Shown piece after piece: positions 25,291 to 28,943 of a stretch of DNA of 64,000 nt; the stretch's first letter is position 1, and every line of letters starts with the position of its first letter. The stretch is from IMG/VR virus record IMGVR_UViG_3300014205_000003, positions 64,001 through 128,000 of that record; one strand, 5' to 3'. The DNA is from a virus. Lineage: Duplodnaviria; Caudoviricetes. The notes under the pieces were generated by a model. It was not told the origin of the DNA and ran no database searches. It saw only the letters and a list, made by a program, of their open reading frames with translations. The translations under genes and the position numbers were made by a program.

Positions 25291-27078
25291 TTATCGAGGC
25301 TTCCAGTCAGGGCGCTTCGGCTCAACCTCTTCGTCATCCTCATGACTAGTTGCACCACTCAATTGAGGGTAGCTTTTCCTCAAATACCATATTGCAGAAC
25401 AAGCGAAGTTCACCGCGTGTACGAAGTCATCACTGCGACCTGCTTTACGATGAAAAAGAAGGATGTCAGAGCCTCGTGGGCTTTCTGATCTTTCCTCACC
25501 AATATTAAGAAAATCAGCTAATAAAGTCCAGCATTTATCCTGTCTGGGGAACTTAACTTTACCAGCTTTAATTGCTGCAAACAAGACTCTTAGAGAGCGA
25601 GCTTTGTCTATCAGATAGCATTTACGACTTCCATCATTCTGCCTATTCGTACGGATGATCTTGTGTCTGGGAGCCCAGTCGTAGGAGAAGGGTACAACAG
25701 TGGCAGGATTCTGTCCTTGTTCAATCATCAAGGCTTCGCGGATATTACCGGCACCGCCGTAGTCATGCGCAAACATATCTGGGTGCAACTGCGCATTTAA
25801 CCAACTAAGCTTACGAGATTCATCGTTAGCGTTCTGACTAGTAGGCATACGCTCCATATAGGAGATTTCGATTACATCGCTTCCATAGATCTGATTCGCA
25901 CAGACATATGTAGTTGTCGATGTGGCATCGTTACCACCACCAGACCAGTCTACGCCTGTAATGATGATACCAGACTGTTTCTGCTTCTCTAGGGAGCGCT
26001 TAAGTGTGTTATCATCTTTCTCTGATGTAGAGCAGGCGTTTGCGAGTTCCGAATGACTAATAGGCATTGAACTGTTATCCGAGGATTCTCCTAGAATCTC
26101 ATTCTCAAACTTGCTCTTTTCATAGGTGTTCATCTTGTGAAGAAGCTGTTGCCACTTAACAGGAGAGCTCAGATGCAGAGGGTGGGTGACCTGAGAGATG
26201 TGGATAGACTTGAATGTGTTGATGTACTGTGGTTGTTCATGCAGAAAGTAACCATCTTCTGTGTAAATAGGCTTCCCACACTTAGCACAGATAATACCTT
26301 CTTTACCGATCATTCTCATTAGATCGTATCTCAGTGCTGCTATGTTCTCGTGTTTACAACTACCTGAACGACAAGGAATTGTCCACTCGCCTTGGCTTGA
26401 TCGCTCATACAAAAGCTGAATGAAATTGTCTAAAGTCTTCGGAGTGCCGCTGTACATATAGAAACCGTACTGTTTACTGGCACTCATCGTCTCCCCAATC
26501 ACAGGCACAAAACTGTCAGTGAGATCTTGCACTTCGTCAAAAATCACCTGGCTCACGGCTGAAATACCCCTAATCCTATTACAGGAGGTAAAGGCATAGG
26601 AGAAGATTTCTTCAGATCGGTTCTTCCATTTATGATAGAGGGCACCATGTCTGCAGGAGGACGAATCAAAGCAGCCTTTGAATGGGCTCGAATCCACGAA
26701 GCTGCTTGAATAATCATCGTTGAGTCGTTTAGATTGAGCAAACAGAGGAGTAACTACTAGGGTTTTGAAGTCGGGTATCAAGATACTTTGCAGTTTGGAT
26801 GTAGCCATTAGGGAGGCAGACTTACCTACCTGTCGTGCAGACTTCAGCAAGAATTCCCTTGGGCGTCCGAGAAGCTGGAAGAGGGGGGCTAGTTGGTAGT
26901 GTTCTTTTAGTCCGAAAGGCTTGCCTTGGAAGCTCAAGAGGAAGAGAAGAGGTAACAGATTCGGAAGGCCGTTAGCTATAATTGAGTCGGAGAGCCTAGT
27001 CAGACTTGAGGCTAACTCCTCAGAGCTGTAGACTTTGTTTTGTAGATCGTCTATATCAGTTTGCAATGCTGTATTCAT
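25291..27078 (-). CDS. terL: Terminase large subunit
   Basis: Walker A SARQVGKS, Walker B IFDEVQD, SGTPK, Zn motif, ENEILG, nuclease GVDWSGG and DDFVHA. Confidence 0.9.
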   Translation of the reverse strand: MNTALQTDIDDLQNKVYSSEELASSLTRLSDSIIANGLPNLLPLLFLLSFQGKPFGLKEHYQLAPLFQLLGRPREFLLKSARQVGKSASLMATSKLQSILIPDFKTLVVTPLFAQSKRLNDDYSSSFVDSSPFKGCFDSSSCRHGALYHKWKNRSEEIFSYAFTSCNRIRGISAVSQVIFDEVQDLTDSFVPVIGETMSASKQYGFYMYSGTPKTLDNFIQLLYERSSQGEWTIPCRSGSCKHENIAALRYDLMRMIGKEGIICAKCGKPIYTEDGYFLHEQPQYINTFKSIHISQVTHPLHLSSPVKWQQLLHKMNTYEKSKFENEILGESSDNSSMPISHSELANACSTSEKDDNTLKRSLEKQKQSGIIITGVDWSGGGNDATSTTTYVCANQIYGSDVIEISYMERMPTSQNANDESRKLSWLNAQLHPDMFAHDYGGAGNIREALMIEQGQNPATVVPFSYDWAPRHKIIRTNRQNDGSRKCYLIDKARSLRVLFAAIKAGKVKFPRQDKCWTLLADFLNIGEERSESPRGSDILLFHRKAGRSDDFVHAVNFACSAIWYLRKSYPQLSGATSHEDDEEVEPKRPDWKPR

Positions 27079-27128: not shown

Positions 27129-27716
27129 ATGACTCGTTGCAGCAATTGTAATGAAGAGAAAGACGATAGTTGTTTTGGGCATGATGGTTCGAAGAAAAAT
27201 AAACTAAGATCCAGATGCAAAGACTGTATGAATTTACAAGCATTAGAGTACCGTACAAAGAACCCAGAGAAATATAGAGAAAGGTCTATGGATTATCGTA
27301 AAGCAGATCCTGTCAAACACTACAAAGGTGTTAGGAAAGCTCTTTTAAAGAGACGTGAGAACCCTGTAGAGGCAGAGCTGTTGCGAGCAAGGGACAGGGC
27401 TCGAAATAGAGCAAATCCTAATGTTAAGAGAAACAGCAGGATGAAACGTACATATGGCATCACTCTTTTAGATTTTGAAGAACTGAAGAAACAGCAAAAA
27501 CAGATGTGCGCCGTTTGTGGTAAACCGTTCTTAAAAACGACACCTCATATTGATCACGATCACAAAACAGGTGTGGTTAGAGGATTGCTATGCTCGCATT
27601 GTAATATTGGGATAGGCAATCTTATGGATAATCCAAGAATCCTTGAAAATGCGATTACATATCTGAAAATTCCGCGCTTAGCTATAGGTGAAATTACGTG
27701 TAATTACGCCTTTTAG
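27129..27716 (+). CDS. Endonuclease VII-family (His-Me) homing endonuclease
   Basis: YGIT; CAVC...HIDHDHKTGVVRGLLCSHCNIGIG. Confidence 0.9.
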   Translation: MTRCSNCNEEKDDSCFGHDGSKKNKLRSRCKDCMNLQALEYRTKNPEKYRERSMDYRKADPVKHYKGVRKALLKRRENPVEAELLRARDRARNRANPNVKRNSRMKRTYGITLLDFEELKKQQKQMCAVCGKPFLKTTPHIDHDHKTGVVRGLLCSHCNIGIGNLMDNPRILENAITYLKIPRLAIGEITCNYAF

Positions 27717-27801
27717 GCCTCTTTTCAGCATAGCTATAAAGCCTTAAGTTTCAAGCACTTAGTTGGCATACTTAATTGTAAGCCTACAACCGTCCGTTTT
27801 G

Positions 27802-27837
27802 GACCCTATCGCCATACACAGGCAATAGGGTCTTTTT
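27802..27837 (+). terminator. Intrinsic terminator-like hairpin
   Basis: GACCCTATCGCC / GGCAATAGGGTC followed by TTTTT. Confidence 0.6.
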
Positions 27838-28002
27838 GTGTGTATTTGGGGGCTGTTCTGCCTTTCTCAAAACAGGTCAAAAAGTGGCCTAAAAAGGGCT
27901 GTTTTAGCCTGCTTCCAGAGCCCTCCAAAACCTCTCTTTTGGACCCTTAAAAGGGAGGTTAAAAGTGGGCATCTTTACCTGTAAGACTTATATCTAGTTT
28001 TG

Positions 28003-28475
28003 GACCCTGTGGTAGAGCCGTGGGCTTCCATCTGTACCATGCGCAGGAAGCATCTGACCCAGCATTCTTAGCGGCTGACGAGACTCTGAAAATGAGTTGA
28101 AACATGTCTATGTAGACATGTACCGCGGAGTGACCCTAAGCTGGGGAATAACTGGTCACCAGTGGTACGGCTTTACTACAGGGTCTTTTTCTCAGTTATT
28201 CGGAGTATTTGCAGAAAGTAGAAGAGGCACCCCATAGAGTTGGGCCTCCTGCAGAGCTCCATTTATTTGGGCTGCTGAACATGCTCCGGGTCGTATAGAC
28301 TCTTCCAGACTCCCAAGCAGGGTTTGGTTAGCATCAGTAAGCAGCCCTTCTTTCAAACGGCGGGGGTAATGGAAGTCATCTGAACAATGACTGCTTTGCA
28401 GAGGACACTCTGCTAGAACGCCTAGCAAGCTCACTGGAGAGCTAGTCATAAGGAGTTGCGAACCTTCCCCTTGCC
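28003..28475 (+). ncRNA. Putative large structured RNA / leader of four closed domains
   Basis: Closing stems 28003-28185, 28202-28260, 28269-28347, 28359-28475, with G-U pairs on the + strand. Confidence 0.55.
28063..28132 (+). ncRNA. Type I hammerhead ribozyme, predicted cleavage after GUA at 28122
   Basis: GCGG-CTGACGA-GACTC(tgaaaat)GAGTT-GAAA-CATGTCTA(tg)TAGACATG-TA-CCGC; stem I extends via CATTCT/GGAGTG past a TA bulge. Confidence 0.85.
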
Positions 28476-28497
28476 ACCATTCAAACAGAGGAGACTC

Positions 28498-28788
28498 ATG
28501 AAGACCTTGGAAGAGATCCTGCAACCACTGCAGGAGCAGCAAGATGCGATGATGAAAGAACTTGGAGACTTTCTTTCTCCGCATATGGAGAAGGCTGTTT
28601 TGCAAGAACCGTGTGCTTCTCAGTGGCAGATACGAATTAAGTACGACGCGAATGTCTTTGACCGAGTGCTTCACATTTGGAACAAAGTGTTCGTGAAGTA
28701 CTGTGATGATCGAGGGTGGGTAAAAACCTCCCTCATAGTTGCTGAGAGTGCAACTCTTATGTTTTCGTTTTCTAAGAAGGAGAGTTAA
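28498..28788 (+). CDS. Hypothetical early protein
   Basis: ATG 28498 with RBS GAGGAG. Confidence 0.65.
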   Translation: MKTLEEILQPLQEQQDAMMKELGDFLSPHMEKAVLQEPCASQWQIRIKYDANVFDRVLHIWNKVFVKYCDDRGWVKTSLIVAESATLMFSFSKKES

Positions 28789-28790
28789 AA

Positions 28791-28943
28791 ATGGCAACCG
28801 AAGTGAAAATCGTGAAACAGTCCCCCCGCCCCCGCGAAATCACCGGCCATATGCTGTGGAAAAAGAATCAGCCAATCCGGCAACTGATTCGGACTTCCCG
28901 CGACATGGTGGTTCTCACGGGTAAAGAGCTCGACACCCGCTAA
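28791..28943 (+). CDS. Small basic protein (50 aa, MATEVKIVKQSPRPRE...), not in the ORF track
   Basis: RBS AAGGAG; C-ending codon bias. Confidence 0.6.
   Translation: MATEVKIVKQSPRPREITGHMLWKKNQPIRQLIRTSRDMVVLTGKELDTR

Follow-up and report, generated by a model that had tools for sequence, protein, structure and literature searches.

Comparative sequence analysis showed that the RNA encoded on the + strand between a terminase–endonuclease gene pair and the next rightward gene of a large phage genome is a member of a widespread, uncatalogued family of phage RNAs built on two pseudoknots, and that the hammerhead ribozyme lying within it is almost certainly genuine, its cleavage being predicted from the catalytic core. 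The window, by which we mean the whole 64,000-nt stretch of DNA analysed here, covers positions 64001-128000 of an IMG/VR phage record that is complete at 188 kb and has direct terminal repeats.

An earlier note on this DNA, made from the sequence alone, had described a complete type I hammerhead core with stems I-III on the + strand, a cleavage site after A28122 and a G.U pair closing stem II. The sequence, a descriptor match and the homologues described below bear out the core and all three stems at the coordinates given in Table 1, and the same strand and site follow from the sequence, the cut itself being predicted. The G.U pair, which stands in place of the canonical G10.1-C11.1 closing pair, proved ordinary in the family, where positions 10.1/11.1 are variable (G-C 20, A.A 18, U.U 2, G.U 2). 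Stem I of the window hammerhead is open and stems II and III are capped, the helices measuring 4, 5 and 8 bp, respectively. Loop II is of a 6-7-nt, UGARAU-like kind that is conserved in a subgroup made up of phages Gaia and Karkharias, loci L027 and L074 and the window, and its candidate partner, a U/A-rich linker, lies 4 bp away from the hammerhead core; no covariation with loop II was available for this contact. The pairing of 28058-63 with 28140-45, taken for an extended stem I both previously and in the minimum-energy fold, is really helix b of the surrounding RNA family. The + strand RNA of positions 27995-28195 folded at -82.5 kcal/mol (z -5.3, with none of 200 shuffles as stable) and its minimum-energy fold included all three hammerhead stems, whereas the - strand of the same interval reached -68.9 kcal/mol, 14 kcal/mol weaker than the + strand.

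Table 1. Features of the hammerhead, the surrounding knotted RNA and their neighbourhood, in window coordinates
Feature	Position	Strand	Evidence or remark
Large terminase, GpA-like	25291-27078	-	PF05876 in relatives
Endonuclease VII-type gene	27129-27716	+	
Weak promoter-like unit (TTAAAA, 17 nt, TAAGAC, TG just upstream)	27959-27987	+	Candidate, read from sequence
P0, 5' strand	28003-28017 (to 28021 in the 19-bp version, overlapping element a)	+	Inverted repeat; minimum-energy fold
Element a (N-CGUGGG), invariant	28018-28024	+	Invariant columns in A3 and A4; parse of 67 members
Stem A hairpin	28025-29/28046-50 (span 28025-28050)	+	Helix 1, 99.6% paired, 5/5 pairs covary
PK2, 5' strand, in stem A loop	28032-40	+	PK2 of 6-9 bp in 67/67 members
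Invariant linker CAUCUG plus x1 (A28057)	28051-28057	+	Parse of 67 members; invariant columns
Helix b	28058-63/28140-45	+	100% paired; A-U/G-C covariation at one pair
U-rich linker into hammerhead	28064-28070	+	Sequence; candidate loop II partner
Type I hammerhead	28071-28126	+	Sequence, descriptor match, 44 distinct homologous hammerheads
Hammerhead stem I, 4 bp	28071-74/28123-26	+	3' strand also part of element c
Hammerhead core strand CUGACGA (C3-U4-G5-A6-N7-G8-A9)	28075-81	+	
Hammerhead stem II, 5 bp, G.U closing pair, 7-nt loop	28082-86/28094-98	+	
Hammerhead GAAA (G12-A13-A14 plus A15.1)	28099-102	+	
Hammerhead stem III, 8 bp including A15.1-U16.1 (A28102-U28121), 4-nt loop	28102-09/28114-21	+	
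Cleavage triplet GUA	H17 = A28122	+	Predicted cut A28122/C28123
Element c (N-CGY-GGAGU)	28123-28131	+	Invariant also in hammerhead-less relatives; first 4 nt are the stem I 3' strand
Helix Px	28130-35/28154-59 (span 28130-28159)	+	Helix 8, 100% paired, 3 pairs covary
Inside Px: J; helix b 3' strand; invariant GAAUAACU	28136-39; 28140-45; 28146-53	+	
PK2, 3' strand	28162-28170	+	Pairs with 28032-40, 9 bp in window; helix 2, 8/8 pairs covary
P0, 3' strand (to 28185), then T5 (28186-90)	28171-28190	+	Repeat and fold; putative terminator
First credible gene after the RNA	starts 28499	+	GAGGAG ribosome-binding site

A descriptor consisting of the core, GAAA, U-H and three helices was run over both strands of the whole 188,069-bp genome, and the window hammerhead was its sole match on either strand. 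Among 281 first-order Markov genomes, chance matches arose 0.078 times per genome when stems of 3/3/3 bp were required and 0.011 times with 4/4/4 bp; no simulated genome attained the 17 bp that the three stems of the window add up to. The check that had been proposed, an Infernal search with the Rfam hammerhead models, did not call the motif, the window scoring below threshold everywhere. No family was called at gathering score for the window, the 66-nt core or the whole genome; RF00163 gave no match at E<=10, RF00008 aligned the window in the hammerhead register at a sub-threshold 17.2-19.6 bits (cut-off 48.5), and RF03152 (RAGATH-1) reached 12.7 bits against a cut-off of 56.3. RAGATH-1 is the only Rfam model to align the window in the true type I register, with a long stem III; it differs in that the 5' part of the model is missing in the window and in having an unlike stem II. 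Since the scanning of many windows yields some chance matches and Rfam was unhelpful, the motif evidence alone is suggestive, not decisive.

Relatives were found from a weak, distant BLAST match to Mycobacterium phage Gaia (71% over 137 nt, E 5e-3), where an unannotated interval immediately following a tRNA-Ser annotation contains the copy; megablast of phage records and an exact 31-mer scan of IMG/VR returned nothing. Between the window and Gaia the flanks of the hammerhead are nearly identical, while stems II and III are entirely different yet paired, and the Gaia triplet is GUC. A 21-nt pattern taken from the most conserved part matched 103 IMG/VR stretches, against about three expected by chance. 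About 16 GenBank phage records carry the knotted RNA, among them Gaia, prophages of M. abscessus, Arthrobacter phages Constance and Karkharias, Enterobacter phage EhYP, Dickeya and Pectobacterium phages and a Microcystis phage. A longer pattern was found on only 12 contigs in 185,579 bacterial and archaeal species (one genome each), scattered over Burkholderia, Rhizobiales, Mycobacterium, Bacteroidota, Gemmatimonadales, Phycisphaerales and others. The many phage stretches, set against 12 scattered species genomes, identify the knotted RNA as one that belongs to phages, across a very broad range of hosts.

The family core is about 110 nt long and contains two pseudoknots, corresponding to 28018-28170 in the window. 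Helices b and Px together form an H-type pseudoknot, and PK2, which joins the stem A loop to the 3' tail, is the second. The strands follow one another in the order element a, stem A, CAUCUG, b, an insertion point, element c, Px (enclosing the 3' strand of b and GAAUAACU), ACC and the 3' strand of PK2. The window has all of the invariant elements in this order between 28018 and 28160, and stem A, b, Px and PK2 can all form in it. Two alignments were used, A3 with 52 sequences, window included, and A4 with 51 sequences (MAFFT), window excluded; each had 36 invariant columns. On A4, 90.6% of cells were paired compared with 70.7% in shuffles, double-sided changes numbered 327 against 105, and sliding the partners, as a control, dropped pairing to at most 43%. 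The lone pair x1-J1 covaries as well (G-C 58, U-A 7, A.C 2). The window is weaker at two of the family contacts, x1-J1 being A.C and J having 4 nt where the family has 3. A covariance model, R1, built from A4 and hence from 51 relatives with the window left out, matched 28016-28184 on the + strand with 100.5 bits (E 1.9e-28) and detected no other copy in the genome.

The base that precedes element a is the same as that preceding element c in 61 of the 67 members (C/C 38, G/G 18, U/U 4, A/A 1), hammerhead-less members included. None of the pairing schemes tried fits this identity (for example, in L037, L045, L078, L096 and L098), and the proposal that a and c re-pair with each other draws on invariant bases, without covariation.

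No Rfam 15 family reached gathering score for the host RNA, whether at the window locus or at nine member loci, and at E<=1 Gaia yielded nothing but tRNAs. Literature searches, including one with the conserved 12-mer as text, found no description of the knotted RNA. To our knowledge, the strand order of the host RNA fits none of the HDV-like, twister, pistol, hatchet and glmS ribozymes or several riboswitches; Rfam agrees in that the RNA fits no catalogued ribozyme class.

A hammerhead occupies the same, fixed insertion point, between helix b and invariant element c, in 47 of the 67 unique standard members, giving 44 distinct sequences. CUGANGA is present in 43 of these 44, the exception being UUGAUAA in Gaia, a C3/G8 to U3/A8 change, and GAAA and the A15.1-U16.1 pair are present in every one. 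The base at N7 is C in 18 of the 44, as in the window. H17 is C in 31, A in 12 and U in one, and the GUA triplet occurs in 12. Stems I-III all covary: the stem I pair adjoining the core is G-C in 26, C-G in 16 and A-U in two, with stem I 96% paired on A4, and each variable position in stems II and III accepts four or five kinds of pair.

The ribozyme of the window resembles the type I hammerheads of phages and prophages (RF00163, CL00010) in its CUGANGA/GAAA/UH core, its three helices and its open stem I. Intergenic hammerheads have been described in phages PaP3 and Bcep176 (Perreault et al., 2011, PMC3088659), and the window family shares with such type I phage hammerheads the intergenic setting and the tolerance of variation at 10.1/11.1 (PMC3088659). 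C3/G8 to U3/A8 covariation is known from natural hammerheads, and natural examples with U.U at 10.1/11.1 have been reported to be active (PMC3088659). In contrast to known phage hammerheads, stem I in the window has only 4 bp and its 3' strand forms part of an invariant element of the host RNA, and the ribozyme is nested in a double-pseudoknot RNA instead of flanking genes. Unlike RF00163 and CL00010 hammerheads, no family member tested reached any Rfam hammerhead threshold. That canonical hammerhead members of the knotted RNA family are likewise missed by the Rfam models explains the sub-threshold scores of the window, and it means that a whole phage subfamily of hammerheads is missed by the current Rfam hammerhead models.

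That a structured terminator or small RNA of unrelated kind happens to contain a hammerhead look-alike is extremely improbable. Such a view could draw on the missed gathering thresholds and on the chance matches to be expected of a loose descriptor applied to very many windows, but the homologues in unrelated phages retain the core and compensate in all three stems, and the knotted-RNA family model recovers the locus with an E value of 2e-28. Taken together, the hammerhead homologues, the family fold and the model match lead us to regard a chance motif as excluded for practical purposes. We consider it quite unlikely, if less so, that a real hammerhead is a tolerated passenger in a permissive loop, with no part in what the knotted RNA does. 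The module is optional, being absent from 20 of the 67 unique members, which have 2-10 nt or another short insert in its place; such short inserts or decayed hammerheads occur at the same site in L038, L053, L090, L115 and L044 (decayed in L044), and this site also provides the ends of the permuted form described below. The absence from 20 members and the few decayed copies imply that the cut is not essential to the knotted RNA family. Set against a mere passenger, however, are the retention of the hammerhead by about 70% of members and the state of its catalytic core, which is intact in 43 of 44 and compensated in the remaining one; an intact core in the midst of freely varying stems indicates purifying selection on cleavage.

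The earlier note had also enclosed the ribozyme in a 19-bp stem, 28003-21 with 28167-85, containing two G.U pairs and followed by T5. The inverted repeat is there, 89% complementary as DNA, and it is the optional outer helix of the family, P0: a closing stem of this type, of at least 8 bp, occurs in 31 of 71 family members, with and without hammerhead, and members without P0 adjoin tRNAs or own a downstream hairpin. Four base pairs at the inner end of the 19-bp stem draw on element a and on the 3' strand of PK2 and so compete with the conserved pseudoknot. Because these inner four pairs are needed by a and PK2, the native fold is probably a 15-bp P0 (28003-17/28171-85) plus PK2. P0 and U5 probably make up the 3' end of the transcript, a stem of 15-19 bp that closes 145 nt being the putative terminator.

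The promoter-like unit upstream of the RNA was not called by a sigma-70 scan, and a genome-wide search for the promoter-like box returned only two local copies. A similar copy of the TGTAAGNC box, at 27777, precedes a sibling hairpin. This hairpin, canonical for a terminator-like one (27802-13/27821-32, then T5; 27796-27840 overall), has a base and flanks identical to the outer end of P0, comprising the 12-nt 5' box and the 3' box with its T-run, and has the look of an 'empty' RNA unit. The 12-nt 5' box occurs for a third time at 27936-47, in the loop of a 10-bp hairpin.

The phage itself represents a poorly sampled lineage with genomes of roughly 190 kb; no relative of its terminase above 52% identity was found among 5.8 billion protein clusters. 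One relative of 50% identity (L022) was fetched and contained a similar repeat-rich gap with neither a hammerhead nor a knotted RNA. The part of the gap that is common to both is limited to CCTAAAAAGGG-type boxes, which are repeated beside the terminase gene at 27875-27907 and 27945-27960 in the window and at 4540-4750 in L022 and could be a candidate regulator-binding or packaging site. The neighbouring endonuclease VII gene was tried as a guide to relatives and rejected, being promiscuous, with loci that lack the knotted RNA. The genome has a single tRNA, distant from the window. Between the RNA and the first + strand gene, 308 nt (28191-28498) are gene-free and fold moderately (z -2.4). A 201-aa open reading frame on the - strand (28192-28797) had no PHROG match and is probably spurious.

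In order to place the RNA in its wider context, we considered its surroundings across the family. Clustering of neighbouring open reading frames revealed no recurrent neighbouring protein in 86 sites, and statistics of the distance to reading frames were too noisy to sort the RNA as a 5' or a 3' UTR element. At 26 of 94 sites a tRNA was found no more than 600 nt away, in each case sharing the strand of the knotted RNA, and in L037 the knotted RNA exactly fills the gap between two tRNAs. The earlier note had placed the ribozyme at the head of an early region; relatives are found in tRNA arrays or alone and do not typically head early operons. This context points to a self-contained stable RNA, often co-transcribed and processed with tRNAs, and not to the leader of one gene. 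In Gaia, the 67-nt tRNA-Ser(cga) annotated as gene 146 (L023:1435-1501), directly upstream of the knotted RNA, was found by neither ARAGORN nor the Rfam tRNA model at E<=1, and instead of a working tRNA it may be a tRNA-like segment of some longer transcript.

One clade of enterobacterial phages carries the RNA in circularly permuted form, with 13 unique sequences that include EhYP (L026:1440-1690) and 12 IMG/VR loci. These sequences open with the hammerhead and element c; a loop closes P0, and beyond helix b the end of the chain pairs with the 5' leader in a helix. The EhYP copy is followed immediately by the ribosome-binding site of tail tubular protein A. Cleavage in this arrangement would create the mature 5' end of the knotted RNA, whereas in the standard form the RNA would only be nicked.

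On balance, we favour the reading that 28003-28190 on the + strand is an independent gene for a small RNA, which is nicked by its hammerhead but held together by pairing. The RNA would be transcribed rightwards from the weak promoter-like unit at 27959-87 and would end at P0 and U5. The hammerhead would cut between A28122 and C28123 to leave a 2',3'-cyclic phosphate and a 5'-OH. With P0, PK2, b and Px spanning the cut, both pieces would remain joined in a nicked RNA, the 3' piece starting exactly at invariant element c with its 5'-OH. More speculatively, the cut may free c from the 4-bp stem I and allow it to adopt the place taken by c in relatives without a hammerhead. Once mature, the knotted RNA would most likely be stable, trans-acting or self-contained, and handled like a tRNA. 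Of the consequences of cleavage proposed beforehand (a decay-resistant 5'-OH end on the early transcript, a nicked and still paired small RNA, or control of read-through at the terminator), it is the nicked RNA that fits the comparative data best, the cut being spanned by four covarying helices.

The proposal that the hammerhead makes an mRNA end strikes us as unlikely. Transcription would then read through P0-U5 into the small + strand genes from 28499, and the mRNA would begin with a 5'-OH covered by the RNA's folded 3' half, which would shield it from 5'-end-dependent decay. The permuted clade of EhYP and its relatives, in which the hammerhead comes first and the RNA runs into the ribosome-binding site of tail tubular protein A, is in keeping with such a role, as are the lack of any terminator-like site called between 28190 and 28499, although on this side of the RNA no promoter was called by the sigma-70 scan either, and the moderate structure (z -2.4) of the 300 nt before the first gene. 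However, the presence of U5 immediately behind a long, G+C-rich stem speaks for an RNA 3' end, most relatives have their own closing stem or U-run and lie in tRNA arrays or alone, not before genes, and members without a hammerhead cannot work in this way. More doubtful still is a regulator of transcription in cis, either a put-like antiterminator or a switch made of a pseudoknot and a U-run terminator, with the hammerhead tuning it; this we judge very improbable. The window RNA does have a promoter-like unit before it and a block of genes behind it, and many members without P0 have A(C)UUUU directly after the 3' strand of PK2, but a run of four or more T within 70 nt was found at only 19 of 78 sites, the RNA may sit at any position of a tRNA array, and the hosts of its carriers have very different polymerases, one carrier being a T7-like podophage with an RNA polymerase of its own. 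HK022 put resembles the window RNA in being compact and in standing after a promoter-like unit and before a gene block, a likeness of compactness and placement, whereas the contexts of the family, with tRNA arrays and a T7-like phage, are unfit for a polymerase-specific cis element.

For the stand-alone RNA that we favour, other parallels are available. GOLLD and ROOL are phage-associated structured RNAs of 580-800 nt (Weinberg et al., 2017, PMC5737381). Like the knotted RNA, they are often found beside tRNA genes and have no fixed protein partner; they differ in that their sequences are unrelated, and the knotted RNA has about 110 core nucleotides, far higher invariance and no Rfam match. Ribozymes that are naturally permuted (hammerhead types I-III and twister P1/P3/P5) offer a second parallel, since the knotted RNA likewise occurs in two circular permutations, its ends lying at P0 or at the b/c junction; unlike those ribozymes, the host RNA is not known to be catalytic, and its conserved nucleotides match no catalogued ribozyme class. 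Invariance of such a degree across distant hosts usually marks a demanding biochemical task. A rule of thumb for biochemically sophisticated RNAs, that they occur in many phyla, contain pseudoknots and have many nucleotides at least 97% conserved (PMC5737381), also applies to the knotted RNA. Tentatively, and with slightly less than even confidence, we suggest that the host RNA represents a hitherto unrecognised class of sophisticated RNA, be it a ribozyme, a scaffold for a ligand or protein, or a mimic that takes a tRNA slot, in phages of at least eight bacterial phyla or orders, with the hammerhead as a built-in means of maturation that would leave a 5'-OH at element c.

Taken alone, the hammerhead would be one more of a well-known class; the surprise lies in its setting, as a fixed and optional module of a nearly invariant RNA. 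As several carriers are cultured (Gaia on M. smegmatis, Constance and Karkharias on Arthrobacter, and EhYP on Enterobacter), the function of this RNA is directly testable. Its carriers are unrelated phages, namely actinophages, enterobacterial podophages, a cyanophage and the 188-kb phage analysed here, and it is nearly absent from bacterial chromosomes.
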